Positions 2,365-10,628 of a DNA stretch of 64,000 bases are shown in pieces. The notes below the pieces were generated by a model. It did not search any database. It was not told the DNA's origin and was given only the letters and a program-made list of their open reading frames with translations. The position numbers and the translations under genes are program-made. The stretch's first letter is position 1, and every line of letters starts with the position of its first letter. The DNA lies in contig CAZNNT010000001.1 in the NCBI GenBank assembly GCA_964574495.1, positions 5,194 to 69,193 on the forward strand, given 5' to 3'. Source of the stretch: an uncultured Candidatus Saccharibacteria bacterium (GTDB lineage Bacteria; Patescibacteriota; Minisyncoccia; HO2-45-28).

Positions 2365-3090
2365 TCAAGGCGATAGAATGGTTTTGGCAAAATCCCAAAA
2401 TTCGGGATGGTTTTGCTTAGTTTTTAACCAAAACCACCATTCCGCGCCCCATAAATAATATTCGTCAAAACCGCTGGCTTTGGCGTAATCAATCGTGTTT
2501 TTGAAAAAATCCAAATCAAAATGTTTCAATTGCTCGTCAAGCGCTGTTTCGTAAAGTTGTTCGGGAAGCCACGGCTCGGCCGCGAGCTCTGAGACAATAA
2601 ATTTTTTCTCATGCTCTCCGGTAAGCCGTCTTATTATTTTTTCTTTAAGTCCGAAAAACTCCGGCGGCAGATGATATTCAATAAAGCCGAGCGTATCATT
2701 ATAAATCCTGCGATACATTGTCGTTCCGAAAATATCTCCGCGTTTAACCGCCCCAAACCACAATCCCAATTCGCCGCTATCCGTAATTAAGACCGGGTGA
2801 TTGGAATCCAGGGATTTGACCAGCGTTATTTCTTCATCCAGAAATTCTTTATCCAGCGGCGGACATTCGCCGAATTTTAAAAACGGCTCGTTTTCTACCT
2901 GCCAATATAAAAGCGCCGGATGATTTTTATAGCGATTTACGACGGCTTCGAGCCCATTAGGGCTCATGACATTCGGGCCAGCGCGGCAGTTTCCGGCCAA
3001 CAGCCAAAATAACCCGCGCGCCGGAGAACGCGGCTTCATCCATTTGATAATCCAAATTTTGAAAATCAAACTTGTCTTCCTCCCGTTCAA
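2365..3090 (-). CDS. Glycoside hydrolase catalytic TIM-barrel portion (GH42/GH5-like NEP acid/base motif), 3' portion of the frameshifted gene
   Basis: Contains NRYKNHPALLYWQVENEPF, a catalytic acid/base context. It overlaps the upstream ORF by 134 nt in another frame. The Met start is probably artefactual, and the true gene likely reads through with a frameshift near 2975-3000. Confidence 0.5.
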   Translation of the reverse strand: MNGRKTSLIFKIWIIKWMKPRSPARGLFWLLAGNCRAGPNVMSPNGLEAVVNRYKNHPALLYWQVENEPFLKFGECPPLDKEFLDEEITLVKSLDSNHPVLITDSGELGLWFGAVKRGDIFGTTMYRRIYNDTLGFIEYHLPPEFFGLKEKIIRRLTGEHEKKFIVSELAAEPWLPEQLYETALDEQLKHFDLDFFKNTIDYAKASGFDEYYLWGAEWWFWLKTKQNHPEFWDFAKTILSP

Positions 3091-4213
3091 TCATGTCCCA
3101 ATAAGCGATGAGACGGATGCGCTTCGGCTTTAATTCTTTTATAATCGCGTCATAATTTTCGCGCCAATAAGCCCCCTCACCTACTTTGCCATCTTTTGAA
3201 TTTGCGCTTTGCGCCACGGCAAAGTAGGTGTGGGGGTCAGACCCGAGCTTTTCGGAAAATTTTTGCGAGAATGTAACGCCCCAGACAATCGAGCGGTTTT
3301 CATCCGACGCCCAGTTTACTCGCGTCCATGCGTCTGACTTGTAATATTCGCCGACGGCAAGCCATAAAACGCCGAAAGAAATAATCGCGAAAGCCGTTAT
3401 TTTTCCGGCCAGAATCCAGCCGGAAAACCGCTCGCGAAGTATCAGCCATCCGCCCAAAAAAACAAAAAGGTATTGGAGATTGCGTGTTGATTCAACCAGA
3501 GGCGGCAAACCGGTTGAAATTGCCGCGTAAATTAAAATGGACCCCAAACCGGCGTAAGCGCGGTTAAACAAATAAAGCCGCTTGTTTTTGAACTCGTCTC
3601 TGCCTTCCGGATGAAAAATCTTTTTTCTGAAAGCCGGCACGGCAAGAAAAATAAGCACCGTCAAAAACGAGGTGAACTTTATCCAAATAAGCCCGGAAAA
3701 AAAACCGGAAAAATCGAAAACCATTTTGGTAAGATTGCTCGCGAGCCCAAAACAAAAAGCGGCTATAACCGCAAGCATAATCACTTTTAACCGAACTCCT
3801 TTTTGTTCAATGAAAAATAATATCAGGCCGCCTAAGATTAAAATTATAAAACCGGCTAACTGGTAAAAGGTTAAATTGATGTCCAAAAGCGCGGAACTGA
3901 AAATCAAGGTGAATATCGGCGCCAAAGCCCAGATTAAAATTATTGAACTGGAGGCCTCGCCGTAAAAGAGGGCGGCAAAATAAAAAAATAGCGCGAGTAT
4001 TGAGACCGCACCGGTTAAAAAGGTAAAACCGAATTCGGAAAAATTAAACAATCTGAATCCGAAAGGCGCGAGAAAAACCGTAAAAACGCTCAAAATTCCT
4101 ATCCAAAAAGTATAGCCGATGGGATTGGGATAGGATTTTTTTAAAAGCAGTTTATCTATTACAGCCGAACTTCCGCTCACGAATTGCGAAGCCACCGCGA
4201 ATAAAAACCACAT
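2957..4213 (-). CDS. EamA/DMT-like 10-TM membrane domain fused to the N-terminal part of a glycoside hydrolase (5' portion of a frameshifted gene)
   Basis: Residues 1-290 are polytopic helices with an SSAVIDKLLL motif typical of EamA. The C-terminal 120 aa (YWDMIEREEDKFDFQNLDYQMDEAAFSGARVILAVG) resemble the N-terminus of a TIM-barrel GH. The ORF stops at 2957 inside what should be a continuous GH domain. Confidence 0.55.
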   Translation of the reverse strand: MWFLFAVASQFVSGSSAVIDKLLLKKSYPNPIGYTFWIGILSVFTVFLAPFGFRLFNFSEFGFTFLTGAVSILALFFYFAALFYGEASSSIILIWALAPIFTLIFSSALLDINLTFYQLAGFIILILGGLILFFIEQKGVRLKVIMLAVIAAFCFGLASNLTKMVFDFSGFFSGLIWIKFTSFLTVLIFLAVPAFRKKIFHPEGRDEFKNKRLYLFNRAYAGLGSILIYAAISTGLPPLVESTRNLQYLFVFLGGWLILRERFSGWILAGKITAFAIISFGVLWLAVGEYYKSDAWTRVNWASDENRSIVWGVTFSQKFSEKLGSDPHTYFAVAQSANSKDGKVGEGAYWRENYDAIIKELKPKRIRLIAYWDMIEREEDKFDFQNLDYQMDEAAFSGARVILAVGRKLPRWPECHEP

Positions 4214-7098: not shown

Positions 7099-7824
7099 TT
7101 ACTTAAAAAGCAAGACGGCGCCTAGAGCGGCGGCGTAGTTGCCGAGGCGAGATTTTAGAACCGGCGCCGGGATGCCGTTTTTGAAAAACTCCTTTTTTAA
7201 TTTTGAGACGAAATTTTTCCTTTTCATTATTACTCCCCCGCCGATGATTATTGCCCGCGGTTTATATGGCTTGATGAGTTTTGCCAAATTCTTGCCTAAA
7301 AATTCGGCGAGTTTCGTATCGTCTTTTTTATCTCTAATTTTTTGATACTCACCCTCCCAACGCTCCGGATATTCAAATTTTTTGATTTTTAAAATTTTTC
7401 CCTTTCTGCCGGAGGCCCGGCCGATTCCCGTGCCAATAGTCAAAAAAAACGCGTTTTTAAAACCTTTTCCGGCTCCAAGCAAATATTCCCCTCTGGCAAA
7501 ACAGCGCGCGTCGTTATCAAGTTTTAATTGAACTCCCGTCGGGATTATTTTTTGAAAATTAAAATTTTTAACCGCGGGAATATTGGGACTAAAACGCAAA
7601 ACCGCGCCACTAACCACTCCGGCTGTCCCGATGCCGATGCCCGATATTTTTTTGACGCGAAAAAAACCGCCAATAAGTCCTTTAAGTTTATTTTCAAAAC
7701 CGGCGCGGGTTTGAGGGGTCTTTATTTCGCGATTTTGCAAAATTTTTTTCTTATTCCACAAAATCCCCCGAATATTCGTCCCGCCTATATCTATGCCGAT
7801 GATATTTTTCAATTTATTGGTCAT
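7099..7824 (-). CDS. ROK-family sugar kinase (glucokinase/N-acetylglucosamine kinase-like)
   Basis: IGIDIGGTNIRG ATP-binding motif and LDNDARCFARGE. The chosen start is the Met of MTNKLKNIIGIDIGG. The 35 codons upstream in the track ORF translate the tRNA-like element and are probably not coding. Confidence 0.7.
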   Translation of the reverse strand: MTNKLKNIIGIDIGGTNIRGILWNKKKILQNREIKTPQTRAGFENKLKGLIGGFFRVKKISGIGIGTAGVVSGAVLRFSPNIPAVKNFNFQKIIPTGVQLKLDNDARCFARGEYLLGAGKGFKNAFFLTIGTGIGRASGRKGKILKIKKFEYPERWEGEYQKIRDKKDDTKLAEFLGKNLAKLIKPYKPRAIIIGGGVIMKRKNFVSKLKKEFFKNGIPAPVLKSRLGNYAAALGAVLLFK

Positions 7825-7825
7825 T

Positions 7826-7935
7826 TGGCTGCCGGGCTTGGATTCGAACCCCCGCCATAGCGGGACAAGCAAGATGCTCGCCTCTTCATCCCGCCAGAGG
7901 CGGGACAAGAAGGGCGATGTCCTATTCACCCCGCC
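7826..7935 (-). other. Degenerate tRNA-like element / tandem 39-40-nt CCCGCCA-initiated repeats derived from tRNA-Gln
   Basis: Shares GGATTCGAACC (T-loop) and AGGGCGATGTCCTA (anticodon stem region) with the adjacent tRNA-Gln and ends with CCA on the minus strand. It lacks a D-arm and a pairing T-stem. Three direct CCCGCCA repeats begin at 7851, 7890 and 7930. Confidence 0.4.
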
Positions 7936-8281
7936 AAATTTTACTTGATAATTCTCTCCCAGCCGAAGCTGCGGGACTAGGATTCGAACCTAGATACTCG
8001 CCTCCAAAGGGCGATGTCCTACCATTAGACGATCCCGCAGCTTCGGCTATGAGTTTTTTAAAAGCATTACCGCCATGCCAACTTTTTATTTGTTCCTCTC
8101 TCTTTCGCGCGTCTTCATAATTTAAATGCTTTTCTGAATAAACAATATCCCAGGGTTTGCTAAATTTTGTTGCACACACATACCCCTTGTTGTGGCGCTT
8201 TAGCCTTTCAATCGGATTCAAGGCGGTAATGCCAATATAGTACTTATTATTTCTATTTTTCAATATATAAAGATTGACCAT
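7922..8281 (-). CDS. GIY-YIG nuclease domain protein (small stand-alone, YhbQ-like); the 3' end runs through tRNA-Gln
   Basis: Start MVNLYILKNRNNKYYIGITALNPIERLKRHNKG carries GIY-YIG-type YIG and RLKRHN motifs. The domain is complete by about residue 81. The remaining 38 codons to the stop at 7922 overlap the same-strand tRNA-Gln, so the true C-terminus is uncertain. Confidence 0.6.
   Translation of the reverse strand: MVNLYILKNRNNKYYIGITALNPIERLKRHNKGYVCATKFSKPWDIVYSEKHLNYEDARKREEQIKSWHGGNAFKKLIAEAAGSSNGRTSPFGGEYLGSNPSPAASAGRELSSKIWRGE
7969..8039 (-). tRNA. tRNA-Gln (anticodon UUG), 71 nt, CCA not encoded
   Basis: Minus-strand read: TGCGGGA (acceptor), U8, D-arm GTCT/AATGGTA/GGAC, anticodon stem TCGCC/GGCGA with loop CUUUGGA, variable GTAT, T-arm CTAGG/TTCGAAT/CCTAG, acceptor TCCCGCA, discriminator G. 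U1-A72 as in E. coli tRNA-Gln. 8-bp leader/trailer complementarity (GCCGAAGC/GCTTCGGC) extends the acceptor stem. Confidence 0.85.
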
Positions 8282-8382
8282 AAATTCTTGTACCGCCACA
8301 GACGGGATGAAGCGGGGCAAGTTAGACGACCCGGCAATTTATAAATTATACGCTATTTTTTCTGTCTTGACAAAGATAAATC

Positions 8383-9447
8383 TTATGTTTCTCTAATTAT
8401 TCTGGACACCGCGAGCTCCAGAGGCAGTTCGCGATGCGAAGAGTAAAAACGGGCGCTTGCGGTATCAAGCAGAACTAAAAGAACGCGCTCAAGGCGATCG
8501 GCCGTAAAATTCGGGATTTCGGGGCCTCCGCCCAAAACACCAAGAAATTTATTCCTGAAATCGTGTATTAAAATTTTCATAAAGACATTGGGTTCAACCC
8601 CGCTTTTTAAAGACCCGCGCACACATTCAAAAGCCGATTTAAAATCCTTCGCGCCGACTGCTAAAACCAGTTCATTTACAGCGTTTTCAGCGGGAGCTCC
8701 AAAAAAGTCGCGCACATCCTCGGCTTTTATCAACTTGGACTTCGCGCCCGCCAAAACCGAAACCTGCTCCAAAAGATTAAGAGCATCACGCAAAGAACCG
8801 TCGGAAAAAAGCGCGAGTATGCGGGCGGCTTCCGGCTCAATTTCAAAACTCTCGGACCTGCCCACTTTAGAAATGACCGCGCCCGCAACTTCCTCAGGCA
8901 GGCGCCTGAATCTCAAATGCTGGCATCTTGAGATTATGGTTTCCGGCACTTTTTCGGGCTCGGTCGTCGCCAGCATAAAAATAAGATGTTCGGGCGGCTC
9001 CTCAAGCGTTTTTAAAAGGGCGTTTGAGGCCTCTTTAGTCAGCATGTGAACTTCATCAATGATATAAACTTTACGTCTGGCCGAAACCGGCAGGAACGAG
9101 GCGGCGTCTCGAATCGCTCGGATTTCATCAATTCCTCGGTTTGAAGCGGCGTCAATTTCAATCAAATCCAGAGTGCGGCCGGAAATAAATTCTGAACAAA
9201 CATGGCAATTATTGCATGGGGCAGACAATCCATCAGAAATTTTGGCTAAATTGGCGCAATTGATGGCGCGGGCAAGAATGCGGGCAACACTAGTTTTTCC
9301 GGTGCCCCTGGGCCCCGAAAAAAGATAAGCGTGGGCTACGCGATTCAGTGTCAGAGCGTTTTTTAAAATCTTAACCACATGAGGTTGCCCCGCGACTTCA
9401 TCTAAGTTTTTCGGCCGATATTTTCTGTATAAAACCGCGTCGGTCAT
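8383..9447 (-). CDS. dnaX: DNA polymerase III subunit gamma/tau (short form)
   Basis: Walker A GPRGTGKTS; zinc-module cysteines CANLAKISDGLSAPCNNCHVC; box II IIDEVHML; sensor SRC motif; 354 aa. Confidence 0.9.
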   Translation of the reverse strand: MTDAVLYRKYRPKNLDEVAGQPHVVKILKNALTLNRVAHAYLFSGPRGTGKTSVARILARAINCANLAKISDGLSAPCNNCHVCSEFISGRTLDLIEIDAASNRGIDEIRAIRDAASFLPVSARRKVYIIDEVHMLTKEASNALLKTLEEPPEHLIFMLATTEPEKVPETIISRCQHLRFRRLPEEVAGAVISKVGRSESFEIEPEAARILALFSDGSLRDALNLLEQVSVLAGAKSKLIKAEDVRDFFGAPAENAVNELVLAVGAKDFKSAFECVRGSLKSGVEPNVFMKILIHDFRNKFLGVLGGGPEIPNFTADRLERVLLVLLDTASARFYSSHRELPLELAVSRIIRET

Positions 9448-9486
9448 TTGGATATGATAGCAGAAATAATTGGTTTTATAAATTTA

Positions 9487-9515
9487 TTGACATAAACACT
9501 TTTTTAATTTAAAAT
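9487..9515 (+). promoter_or_regulatory. Putative sigma70 promoter (TTGACA-17-TAAAAT) for the 9570 gene
   Basis: TTGACA at 9487-9492, a 17-bp spacer and TAAAAT at 9510-9515. The downstream SD TTAAGGAGG sits 8 nt before the ATG. Confidence 0.5.
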
Positions 9516-9569
9516 ACCTTGGGAATTGATTTTTGAAATAACCCTCAACCCTTAAGGAGGCATTAACAG

Positions 9570-10628
9570 ATGCATGTAACGCTTGCCGGCAATATGATGG
9601 CTCCGTCAGTCGCGTTTACTATGCTTAGCCAGCATTTGGCCGCCCTCGGCATTCAAACTATTTCGTTGCTTGGATGCGGAAAAGAAATAGATTTATCCTC
9701 TAACGCTCTCCGCGACTTAGTTTATCTGGCAGATGTGATTCTTGTTGGCATGTCCGGGCCGGAAAAACTTGCTCAAACGGAGCTGGAAATTGCTAAAAAG
9801 GCGCTGGGACAAGACGTCCCTTTCGGCTTCTACTCCGACACTTATGATGTCTTTCGCAGGCCGTGGATTCCAGAATTTTTGAGAAAAGAAGCATCGTTTT
9901 TGTTCGTATCCCAAGAAGAAGAAAAAGAAGAAGCCCAAAAACTCTTCCCAAAAGCCAAAATCGTGGCCTCGGGCAATCCGACCTGGGAAGATTTTTTCTC
10001 GCCGCGATTTTCCAGAGATGAAATTCGTTCGCGCTTCTACATCCCAACCCAAAAAAAAGTTATTCTATGCTCTCTCGGCACTGCGCTTGAACCAAATTTA
10101 ACAATGCTGAAAAATCTGAATAATGCTTTGTTCAAAGAACATTTCTCGTGGACGATTCTCATCGGCATTCATCCTGGAGATCAAAATTATAGAAACGACC
10201 CGAGGATTTACGCAAAAAGTCTTGAACCAAATATTCAACTTGAACCAAACATTCAAATGGAGTTCGTCCCCAGAAACGAAATGCCGACAATGGACATTAT
10301 CCCGGGCGCGGATTATGTGGTGGATACGCCGGGCAGTTCCATCGGTATCAACGCGGCCTGCCTGCGAGTGCCCGTCATATGTTACTGTTCAAAAGAAGCG
10401 TTAGACAACTTGGAAGAATCAATCGGCAAAAGGTCGTGGAGACCATGTGAGAACGGCGTTGTTCTTCCTGTTTACAACCCCGACGATCTCTACTTGGCCT
10501 TTAGACAAGATTTTACGGATATTATTGATAGACAGAAATATATTTTTCCCAAACCCTTCGAAAAAGGCCAAGCAATAAGAATCATAACTGAAATCTTGCA
10601 AAAATACGGCTCTGATAAAAAGAGCTGA
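9570..10628 (+). CDS. GT-B fold glycosyltransferase-like protein (MurG/GT28-like C-terminal domain), function uncertain
   Basis: Strong SD (AAGGAGG). The N-terminus (MHVTLAG, beta-strand/helix) and the C-terminal half (KVILCSLGTALEP ... DYVVDTPGSSIGINAACLRVPVICY) resemble the two Rossmann halves of GT-B enzymes. No diagnostic family motif found. Confidence 0.35.
   Translation: MHVTLAGNMMAPSVAFTMLSQHLAALGIQTISLLGCGKEIDLSSNALRDLVYLADVILVGMSGPEKLAQTELEIAKKALGQDVPFGFYSDTYDVFRRPWIPEFLRKEASFLFVSQEEEKEEAQKLFPKAKIVASGNPTWEDFFSPRFSRDEIRSRFYIPTQKKVILCSLGTALEPNLTMLKNLNNALFKEHFSWTILIGIHPGDQNYRNDPRIYAKSLEPNIQLEPNIQMEFVPRNEMPTMDIIPGADYVVDTPGSSIGINAACLRVPVICYCSKEALDNLEESIGKRSWRPCENGVVLPVYNPDDLYLAFRQDFTDIIDRQKYIFPKPFEKGQAIRIITEILQKYGSDKKS

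Follow-up and report, generated by a model that had tools for sequence, protein, structure and literature searches.

An intact tRNA-Gln gene and a GIY-YIG nuclease gene nested within an interrupted tRNA-Gln gene of a Saccharibacteria genome

A stretch of 64,000 nucleotides (nt) from an uncultured Candidatus Saccharibacteria bacterium (contig CAZNNT010000001.1, positions 5,194 to 69,193; hereafter the window) carries a resident gene for tRNA-Gln(UUG) that is divided into four pieces by three inserts. The largest insert is a 397-nt cassette that resides in the D-loop of the resident gene and includes both a GIY-YIG nuclease gene and a second, intact gene for tRNA-Gln(UUG). We favor the hypothesis, to which we assign a probability of about 0.68, that this cassette is a mobile element composed of a nuclease and a replacement tRNA, and that the two other inserts are hairpin mini-derivatives of such elements.

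A resident tRNA-Gln gene in four pieces

ARAGORN and Rfam report a single tRNA across the whole window, a tRNA-Gln(UUG) at 8039..7968. An earlier examination of these letters without database searches (hereafter the sequence-only reading) had placed this tRNA within the 3' end of a GIY-YIG open reading frame (ORF), and this is indeed where it resides: the ORF has no stop ahead of the tRNA and reads through to a TAG at 7924-7922. That reading also described a downstream element of about 110 nt (7937..7826) that resembles a tRNA, ends in CCA and abuts the start codon of a ROK-family gene. The resemblance is borne out by collinear tRNA-Gln segments with identities of 15/15, 83% and 87%, and only 1 nt separates the CCA from the ATG at 7824. 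The features of the locus, all of which lie on the minus strand between 7826 and 8373, are as follows, with the two neighboring genes given last. Loci from other genomes and metagenomes carry our labels beginning with L.

8345..8373, minus strand: sigma-70-like promoter TTGTCA-17 nt-TATAAT, with 11 of 12 consensus matches, whose -10 hexamer ends 8 nt ahead of outer tRNA position 1; the sequence recurs in an independent assembly
8322..8336, minus strand: outer (resident) tRNA-Gln piece 1, TGCCGGG TC GTCT AA, tRNA-Gln profile positions 1-15, holding the acceptor 5' strand, U8-C9, the D-stem 5' strand and D-loop bases 1-2
7925..8321, minus strand: the 397-nt cassette, inserted into the outer-tRNA D-loop; the break between profile positions 15 and 18 is also found in at least 22 other loci
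8312..8321, minus strand: left end of the cassette, CTTG + CCCCGC, which supplies the closing helix with its 5' strand (helix tested in 14 cassettes)
8287..8311, minus strand: inverted nested hairpin unit TTCATCCCGTCTGTGGCGGTACAAG (reverse complement CTTGTACCGCCACAGACGGGATGAA), which splits the cassette left end
7922..8281, minus strand: GIY-YIG ORF of 119 codons, ATG at 8281; the nuclease domain, amino acids (aa) 1-82, corresponds to 8281-8036
8040..8053, minus strand: leader arm of a 14-base-pair (bp) helix that extends the inner-tRNA acceptor stem, supported by covariation and specific to cassettes
7968..8039, minus strand: inner intact tRNA-Gln(UUG), CCA not encoded (ARAGORN; Rfam tRNA, 64.2 bits)
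7956..7969, minus strand: trailer arm of the same helix, from discriminator G73 (complementarity, covariation)
7925..7935, minus strand: right end of the cassette, GGCGGGG + TGAA, which supplies the closing helix with its 3' strand (helix tested in 14 cassettes)
7910..7924, minus strand: outer tRNA piece 2, TAGGACATCGCCCTT, identical at 15/15 positions to the inner tRNA, holding the D-loop end, the D-stem 3' strand, A26, the anticodon-stem 5' strand and C32-U33-U34
7885..7909, minus strand: 25-nt hairpin mini-insert CTTG TCCCGCC TCT GGCGGGA TGAA in the anticodon loop, replacing the TG of the anticodon
7870..7884, minus strand: outer tRNA piece 3, GAGGCGAGCATCTTG, a collinear tRNA-Gln match of 83% identity, holding G37-A38, the anticodon-stem 3' strand, the variable loop and T-stem nt 1-4
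7850..7869, minus strand: 20-nt hairpin mini-insert CTTG TCCCGC TATG GCGGGG in the T-stem 5' strand; excision in silico restores CTTGG-TTCGAAT-CCAAG
7826..7849, minus strand: outer tRNA piece 4, holding the last T-stem base, the T loop, the T-stem 3' strand, the acceptor 3' strand, G73 and an encoded CCA; acceptor and GCCA as in the resident tRNAs of L051 and L066
8383..9447, minus strand: dnaX (DNA polymerase III gamma/tau), the conserved upstream neighbor of resident tRNA-Gln in genomes of the Candidate Phyla Radiation (CPR)
7099..7824, minus strand: ROK-family gene, whose ATG lies 1 nt past the outer-tRNA CCA (7828-7826)

When the locus is aligned with a tRNA-Gln profile built from 58 intact tRNA-Gln genes, positions 1-15 are found upstream of the cassette and positions 19-72 in the downstream element. 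The sequence-only reading had held that this element lacks both a T-stem and a D-arm. However, the T-stem strands CTTGG and CCAAG are present and are split by the 20-nt insert, and the D-stem 3' strand GGAC also resides in the element, with its 5' partner and the acceptor 5' strand at 8336-8322, approximately 400 nt upstream. The upstream TGCCGGG pairs 7/7 with CCCGGCA at 7836-7830. A chance match of the 15-nt upstream piece is unlikely on these sequence comparisons, because the acceptor strands are complementary at all seven positions and because the identical arrangement is found in at least 22 loci.

After removal of the inserts, every stem of the outer tRNA (acceptor, D, anticodon and T) is perfectly paired, as read by eye from the sequence; an automated parse of the same outer tRNA gives 20 of 21 stem pairs, with the T-arm insert misplaced. 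The outer and inner copies differ by compensatory changes in two of their stems (TGCCGGG/CCCGGCA versus TGCGGGA/TCCCGCA in the acceptor, and CTTGG/CCAAG versus CTAGG/CCTAG in the T-stem). The outer pieces are identical at 67 of 69 positions, including the encoded CCA, to the uninterrupted dnaX-linked tRNA-Gln(UUG) of locus L051, from a Giovannonibacteria metagenome-assembled genome (MAG), compared with 60 of 69 positions for the inner tRNA of the window itself. Furthermore, dnaX lies directly upstream of a tRNA-Gln gene, mostly uninterrupted, in at least 25 other CPR loci. The dnaX linkage, the closer match to the resident gene of another genome and the promoter-like site upstream together indicate that the outer copy is the resident dnaX-linked tRNA-Gln(UUG), into which the GIY-YIG gene and the intact tRNA were inserted.

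Thus, what had been taken for a decayed tRNA duplication is the 3' three-quarters of a resident tRNA-Gln(UUG) gene whose 5' quarter resides upstream of the GIY-YIG gene. The other suggestion of the sequence-only reading, an integration scar, was correct to the extent that a putative mobile element disrupted a tRNA gene, but the GIY-YIG gene and the intact tRNA constitute the insertion rather than its target. The three direct repeats of 39-40 nt that had been described in the 110-nt element could not be recovered with Tandem Repeats Finder; there are just two copies of 37 nt with 76% identity, and the periodicity is present because GC hairpins alternate with tRNA pieces. Rfam gives no covariance-model match for the 110-nt element, a result that the sequence-only reading would have counted in its own favor, and yet the element belongs to a thrice-interrupted tRNA gene.

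The element is likewise not called by ARAGORN, either with default settings or with introns allowed. At a lowered threshold, ARAGORN proposes a tRNA-Asp(GUC) at 7826-7896 of the window (minus strand), whose acceptor is mismatched and whose T arm is poor, and, on the plus strand, a tRNA-Trp at 7824-7939 with a 35-nt intron. Both candidates leave the real 5' piece unused and were rejected. These spurious calls are assembled from the hairpins and the genuine T arm, and could mislead automated annotation.

Recurrence, presence or absence, and decay of the cassette

A genome scan returned 417 relatives and a metagenome scan 377, and the best 80 of each were examined. These relatives are almost wholly from Patescibacteria. 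At least 22 loci, drawn from different MAGs and metagenomes of Patescibacteria, show the same D-loop nesting, in each case with the break between profile positions 15 and 18 and with the ends CTTG-CCCCGCC and GGCGGGG-TGAAG. We considered that the window might hold an assembly artefact, in the form of a chimeric join of two tRNA-Gln loci, since its source is evidently a MAG and since repeated tRNA sequences can mislead assemblers. This explanation is hardly credible, both because the same architecture appears in many independent assemblies and because an independent Logan contig is identical over 9594..8010 of the window, an interval that runs from dnaX through piece 1, the left end of the cassette and the GIY-YIG gene into the first part of the inner tRNA.

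Among 30 dnaX-linked tRNA-Gln sites, 5 carry a GIY-YIG gene, approximately 17 are plain, and approximately 8 consist of an intact tRNA accompanied by stray tRNA-Gln fragments. Such sporadic presence and absence at an orthologous site is characteristic of homing genes. It also bears on an explanation that involves no mobility at all, wherein a tRNA-Gln gene beside a host GIY-YIG gene was duplicated in tandem and one copy then decayed at random. Tandem tRNA duplications are common in bacteria, and two tRNA-Gln(UUG)-like sequences do reside less than 500 nt apart in the window. However, the degenerate copy flanks both the GIY-YIG gene and the intact tRNA and is therefore nested rather than tandem, the outer copy is closer to the resident gene of another genome than to its own neighbor (67/69 versus 60/69), the same break point and terminal sequences occur in dozens of unrelated genomes, and the orthologous site is found both filled and empty. 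We consequently regard a simple duplication as very improbable.

The two tRNA copies have fared differently. Across 21 loci, the inner tRNAs are paired at 441 of 441 stem positions, whereas the outer copies are paired at 382 of 441 in the raw comparison and at approximately 398 after hand correction of L020, where the 5' piece had been missed, and L091, where the anticodon arm had been misaligned. The outer copy is perfectly paired in about 12 of the 21 loci and visibly decayed in about 8, with loss of the anticodon arm (L005), shortening (L009), T-loop mutations (L013, L082, L089 and L091) or mismatched halves (L081). This comparison indicates that the inner tRNA is the copy under selection. 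The inner and outer anticodons agree in every locus compared, as expected if only insertions with a matching replacement tRNA are tolerated.

The nuclease gene also decays. In nine loci the ORF frame is full of stops, and the cargo tRNA, its stem and the outer remnant are kept. Judged by their sequences, these loci represent the stage of decay that is expected of a homing-type element. Among the degenerate cassettes (L049, L061, L065, L067/L146, L071, L077, L122, L130 and L159), a leader-trailer helix of 13-14 bp persists and the outer remnants shrink.

Other layouts occur among the relatives. In one, a 5' tRNA fragment that reaches as far as the anticodon stem, with a hairpin in its D-loop, precedes the ORF, and the intact tRNA comes next. 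In another, the ORF follows a copy with two T-loop hairpins and is again followed by an intact tRNA, usually without a 3' remainder. Specifically, the upstream tRNA-Gln of L005, L017, L018, L053 and L098-L100 is split at C56/G57 by two tandem hairpins that differ in sequence from those described above (e.g. TCCGCC..GGCGGA + TGCGCC..GGCGCA), and in L017 the upstream acceptor 5' strand TGCCGGG mismatches the downstream 3' remnant TCCCGCA. Four loci (L084 at 1814-2050, L085 at 398-590, L092 at 388-590 and L056 at 3320-3550) carry, downstream of the inner tRNA, tandem units composed of a trailer, a right end or mini-hairpin, and tRNA positions 18-72. The sequences of these units suggest that insertions were nested or repeated, or else that copies of the cassette recombined unequally. 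A change at U55 is present in the outer tRNA of L091 (approximately 1847-1901), and the T loops in L008 and L091 read TCCGAAT or TCCGAGT. Among viral contigs, only matches to the tRNA-encoded tail were found and none to the GIY-YIG domain, giving no sign of a phage vector.

Excision of the inserts and the possibility of introns

An alternative hypothesis holds that the outer tRNA is functional and that its three inserts are non-ribozyme tRNA introns spliced by proteins, possibly the encoded GIY-YIG nuclease, working on RNA or at the helix junction, together with a cellular RNA ligase. Several features are consistent with this arrangement. All inserts occupy cloverleaf loops or loop-stem junctions and are closed by helices, and some are clean, namely those in the anticodon loop of L007 (33/34), in the D loop after AATGG in L021, L014 and L034, and in the T arm of the window. 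Moreover, the outer copies with perfect stems carry compensatory differences from the inner tRNA, and in L008 it is the inner tRNA whose T loop has a U55C change while the outer copy is canonical. If this hypothesis were true, CPR bacteria would possess protein-dependent tRNA splicing with mobile introns, which is otherwise known only in archaea and eukaryotes.

Despite these attractions, removal of the inserts does not usually regenerate a tRNA. Without its D-loop insert the window sequence reads AAUGAAUA, which lacks G18-G19. Removal of the anticodon-loop insert leaves 5 or 9 loop bases, with TG replaced and AA added, and only the T-arm insert excises cleanly. Because of the loss of G18-G19, the replaced TG and the added AA, simple excision yields no normal tRNA in the window or in most other loci. 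Alternative splice boundaries for the anticodon-loop insert, which would create the anticodons UCU, GAA, UAA or UCA, were rejected since comparative data identify the resident anticodon as UUG.

The junctions likewise do not resemble those of known protein-spliced introns. Inspection by hand revealed no 3-4-3 bulge-helix-bulge at any of the three. The D junction of the window has single unpaired nucleotides at A14 and A21, a 4-bp ACUU/AAGU helix, a 1x2 internal loop (G opposite UG) and a helix of at least 7 bp, with no 3-nt bulges. Rfam models, applied up to E = 10 at 7600-8400 and at the gathering threshold across the window, matched only the inner tRNA, with no Intron_gpI match under either setting and no group I or group II intron, transfer-messenger RNA or T-box above noise.

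The pattern of decay also argues against functional introns. The outer copy is decayed, shortened or mismatched between halves in about 8 of 21 loci and the inner tRNA is intact in all; when the ORF decays, the inner tRNA stays and the outer remnant shrinks; and whole subfamilies retain only a 5' fragment with no 3' remainder. The outer anticodon is always the same as the inner one, which makes the outer copy redundant. For these reasons, we consider the intron hypothesis improbable.

Conserved helices and hairpin inserts

Complementarity between the leader and trailer of the inner tRNA had been noticed in the sequence-only reading as an 8-bp match. The pairing is real, but 8 bp is too short: with the acceptor stem counted in, each arm measures 21 nt, and the two are complementary at 90%. 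The leader-trailer helix itself comprises 14 bp that are continuous with the acceptor stem (21 bp in total), such that even the discriminator base is paired, and the leader strand simultaneously codes for the last residues of the nuclease domain. In an alignment of 33 cassettes, 17 of 18 tested pairs are changed on both sides. Overall pairing in the same cassettes is 90.6%, compared with 71.3% for shuffled sequences (0 of 500 reach the observed value) and no more than 47% when the partners are slid. In all 25 cassette tRNAs examined for leader-trailer pairing, 12-14 of the 14 positions are paired; where no GIY-YIG gene is present, 50 of 64 tRNA-Gln genes are paired at 9 or fewer.

A second helix is formed by the cassette ends. 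In 14 cassettes this closing helix is 94% paired over 14 bp, with five pairs changed on both sides and none of 500 shuffles reaching this level. The length of this pairing ranges from 10 to 19 bp across loci, its GC core CCCCGCC/GGCGGGG is invariant while the distal part covaries, and the helix often reaches or overlaps the start codon of the nuclease gene (L082 and L012). The whole element of the window folds with a z score of -6.0, and in its minimum free energy structure the outer acceptor strands are paired, the closing helix and the hairpin of the anticodon loop are formed, and the inner cloverleaf stands on its stem.

The mini-inserts share lineage-specific ends with the cassette that resides in the same genome, extending over 28 nt in L012, 14 nt including a lineage-specific G in L003, and 10+11 nt in L001. 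Mini-inserts of a T-type variant (CTTGTCCCGCC..GGCGGGATGAA) are found in the window and in L082, whereas the cassette is C-type, a difference in sequence that suggests separate insertion events. The window carries a fourth hairpin unit, in inverted orientation, inside the cassette left end (8311-8287). Full and miniature copies thus have terminal inverted repeats (TIRs) in common, as is typical of miniature inverted-repeat transposable elements (MITEs). No target-site duplication is present at the junctions, where TG is replaced and AA is added, and the sole ORF of the cassette is that of the GIY-YIG nuclease.

A compact nuclease with a tRNA-encoded tail

The GIY-YIG ORF matches Pfam family PF01541 with E=2.8e-13 and 50.4 bits (cut-off 22.6). 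Among 28 homologues, R26 and E62 are invariant and Y5, Y15 and H30 are at least 90% conserved. AlphaFold2 predicts a confident alpha/beta fold for aa 1-82, with predicted local distance difference test (pLDDT) values of 83-96, and disorder for aa 84-117 (pLDDT <50). Profile searches return the UPF0213 structures 1zg2 (E=4.7e-6) and 1ywl (E=1.5e-5) as well as an SLX1 homologue (E=0.014), and the top Foldseek matches are 1zg2, At-HIGLE and Slx1-Slx4. These sequence and model comparisons identify a small, predicted structure-specific GIY-YIG nuclease of the UPF0213/Slx1 type, unlike the I-TevI and Seg types with their DNA-binding domains. No family model in NCBIfam or PHROGs matches the nuclease of the window. 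An exhaustive protein search yielded 1,790 representative clusters at E <= 0.001.

Beyond aa 82 the ORF consists of read-through, first of the leader and the tRNA and then of the trailer and the right end of the cassette, and it terminates within the outer D arm. The 37 residues past the catalytic domain are read-through of tRNA and trailer, and the predicted fold includes no added DNA-binding domain. The sequence-only reading had proposed that either the protein tail is tRNA-encoded or tRNA processing truncates the messenger RNA. The ORF indeed reads through the tRNA in 28 of 44 related loci. In the remainder, the stop precedes the tRNA (10 loci) or lies inside it (6 loci). The read-through loci are essentially those with a fixed 8-nt spacing, and subfamilies whose stop precedes the tRNA have no tRNA-encoded tail. 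Judging from these sequences and the predicted disorder, the tail is probably incidental, a by-product of the fixed 8-nt spacing and the reading frame rather than a conserved requirement, because the stop precedes or lies in the tRNA in 16 of 44 loci.

Relatives in other phyla and at other tRNAs

Homologous nucleases (approximately 45-50% identity) are encoded in Bacteroidota between two copies of tRNA-Pro that agree in their anticodon and in the flank on their downstream side. In the tRNA-Pro copy downstream of the ORF, CCCCGCC-NNNN-GGCGGGG takes the place of the D arm. In Peregrinibacteria, locus L063 (2915-3320) carries a tRNA-Gly(GCC) copy with a hairpin, TCCCGCAATGCGGGA, in its anticodon loop, followed by the nuclease gene and an intact tRNA-Gly; this hairpin is of the TCCCGC..GCGGGA type. 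As judged by sequence, the GC hairpin travels with the nuclease across phyla and tRNA identities, because such a hairpin is present at both the Bacteroidota tRNA-Pro and the Peregrinibacteria tRNA-Gly loci.

The Bacteroidota loci are L022, L023, L025-L031, L033, L035, L036, L039, L040, L042 and L078, with the arrangement located around 2700-3310. Their ORFs extend no more than 10 nt into the tRNA before a TAG ends them, and L030 and L035 carry tandem arrays of a unit composed of the nuclease gene and the hairpin-bearing tRNA-Pro. In Levybacteria, L055 (2960-3301) has a tRNA fragment, a nuclease gene and then a tRNA-Val(UAC).

A proposed mode of movement

The cassette has short, pairing inverted ends (CTTG-CCCCGC(C)...GGCGGGG-TGAA(G)), an 82-residue GIY-YIG nuclease gene and an abutting tRNA-Gln(UUG). 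We propose that the promoter of the resident tRNA would drive transcription through the whole unit, and that the inner tRNA would be freed from its long stem by ordinary tRNA-processing or double-stranded-RNA-processing enzymes. The inner tRNA could then take over the role of the destroyed resident gene, such that the insertion would be tolerated. The nuclease may cut tRNA-Gln genes that are free of the cassette, or hairpin or cruciform DNA formed there, and repair would copy the cassette into the break, in a manner like that of T4 SegB. By this hypothesis, the 110-nt element would be the redundant 3' remainder of the resident gene, which appears to have been hit by two further, non-autonomous hairpin mini-inserts. 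Homing is our preferred mode of movement by analogy with such systems.

A different mechanism could generate much of the same pattern. The cassette might be a hairpin-ended DNA transposon, in which an Slx1-like GIY-YIG nuclease cuts and rejoins the paired or extruded CCCCGCC/GGCGGGG ends, and the hairpins of 20-45 nt would be MITE-like derivatives; the target would be the loops of tRNA genes exposed in single-stranded or cruciform DNA. The invariance of the GC core of the TIRs while their distal part covaries is consistent with this possibility, as is the occurrence of the same hairpin beside homologous nucleases in another phylum and at another tRNA. The mini-inserts share the ends of full cassettes and sit at several loop positions of one gene, the nearest structural relatives of the nuclease cut branched or structured DNA, and the protein has no DNA-binding domain with which to recognize a long site. 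In contrast, the junctions exhibit no target-site duplication and are irregular, with TG replaced and AA added. In addition, loose CCCGC...GCGGG hairpins in the sampled loci are not confined to tRNA-Gln, with 52 near tRNA-Gln pieces and 70 elsewhere, many of them in other tRNA copies. We also know of no GIY-YIG transposase in bacteria. On balance, we judge a hairpin-ended transposon to be unlikely, though more likely than any of the other alternatives to homing.

Several observations weigh against the homing hypothesis that we favor. First, mobility is inferred from the distribution of the element. Second, the nuclease is a bare catalytic domain and lacks the DNA-binding domain that gives specificity to known GIY-YIG homing enzymes. 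Third, the inner tRNA shares the D-loop sequence of the outer one, and homing leaves the sparing of the inner copy unexplained. Fourth, a tRNA of 72 nt offers very short homology arms for recombination-dependent homing. Fifth, the location of the inserts in loops, the covariation of both helices and the intactness of about 12 of 21 outer copies would also fit a mechanism that operates at the level of RNA, as with introns, or on single-stranded or cruciform DNA. Sixth, no simple insertion model fits the D-loop and anticodon-loop inserts, which replace TG and leave an extra AA. Finally, the inner tRNA of L008 (3233-3305) has the T loop TCCGAAT, with a change at the near-universal U55, while its outer counterpart is canonical.

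Comparison with known systems

The nearest documented analogue is T4 SegB, a free-standing GIY-YIG homing endonuclease that recognizes a conserved tRNA (T-psi-C) motif and spreads with tRNA genes (PMC2330249). In both systems a GIY-YIG gene resides among tRNA genes and is distributed sporadically among relatives. However, SegB is a phage protein with extra DNA-recognition regions and a 27-bp site, whereas the present nuclease is a bare 82-aa domain of the UPF0213/Slx1 type found in cellular CPR genomes. The cassette also differs in residing inside a tRNA D-loop, in having paired hairpin ends and in carrying a replacement tRNA of the same identity on a processing stem.

Members of the UPF0213/YhbQ/Slx1 group (1zg2, 1ywl; 6seh, 7cq4) similarly are stand-alone domains of approximately 80-100 aa with catalytic Tyr, Arg and Glu residues. 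To our knowledge, the known members are structure-specific nucleases with roles in housekeeping or DNA repair, and none has been connected with tRNA genes or with mobility. The subfamily represented in the window, in contrast, shows the behavior of a selfish element and has its gene physically fused to that of a tRNA.

Integrative elements that target tRNA genes offer another parallel, in that a tRNA gene is the target, a sequence that preserves function is supplied and a partial tRNA is left as a scar. Such elements, which extend over kilobases, rely on a tyrosine or serine integrase, enter the tRNA gene at its 3' end and duplicate no more than a segment of it. In contrast, the cassette is 397 nt long, is inserted in the D-loop and carries a complete, independent tRNA. 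It has neither an integrase nor an attachment (att) site at the tRNA 3' end, and has room only for the 119-codon GIY-YIG ORF.

Two forms of interrupted tRNA gene merit comparison as well. Multi-intron tRNA genes and transposable tRNA introns of Thermoproteales archaea are described in work cited in PMC10714607. As with archaeal introns and split tRNAs, several short, related and helix-closed inserts occupy non-canonical positions of one tRNA gene and show signs of having spread between sites. Archaeal introns, however, have a bulge-helix-bulge, are removed by EndA and restore a normal tRNA; here the motif is absent, most inserts are non-restoring, the host is bacterial and the interrupted copy decays. 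In Patescibacteria, self-splicing group I introns, some with homing endonuclease genes, reside in the anticodon loop (35/36) of tRNA-Asn and tRNA-Asp, in a report that mentions neither GIY-YIG nor Gln in connection with them (PMC13011429). These share with our locus the phylum and the fact that the interrupted tRNA genes escape standard annotation tools. They differ from it in that the locus has no group I signal, concerns a tRNA-Gln whose D-loop, anticodon loop and T arm each carry an insert, and includes mini-inserts of 20-25 nt and a nested tRNA.

In the literature that we searched, with subscription journals mostly outside its coverage, we found no account of cassettes that combine GIY-YIG and tRNA-Gln genes, of tRNA genes with hairpin inserts in bacteria or of a link between UPF0213 proteins and tRNA. 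If our hypothesis is correct, the cassette would represent a compact selfish element, widespread in CPR bacteria and with relatives in Bacteroidota, that invades an essential gene by bringing a spare copy. It would also tie the poorly understood small GIY-YIG proteins of the UPF0213/YhbQ type to tRNA genes and a conserved GC hairpin, and thereby provide a testable hypothesis for their function. The covarying 21-bp stem of the cargo tRNA and the loop-specific insertion sites make this a good system in which to study how structured nucleic acids guide mobile elements.

Neighboring gene and consequences for annotation

Between the tRNA promoter (8373-8345) and the ROK gene, no terminator-like site was seen in the interval examined (7600-8500). 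The layout suggests that the ROK gene may be co-transcribed with the whole tRNA and cassette unit.

Interrupted resident tRNA genes are missed by tRNA finders, and the copy number of tRNA-Gln in reduced genomes may be mis-scored as a result. Protein databases are affected in turn, as hundreds of public GIY-YIG proteins carry N- or C-terminal extensions that result from translation of tRNA and hairpin sequences. A tail is present in more than 170 homologous proteins that is of the form AAGSSNGRT..YLGSNPSPAA and corresponds to tRNA-Gln in one reading frame, and UUG and CUG versions can be read directly in the peptide. Database proteins that start with RLTCPAK are translated from the outer D-stem and the cassette left end, and those that end in FGGVK from the cassette right end. 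In P0013, P0022, P0043, P0050, P0053, P0042 and others, the RLTCPAK N-terminal extensions and the AAGSSNGRT..SNPSPAA..FGGVK tails constitute a systematic gene-calling artefact in CPR genomes.

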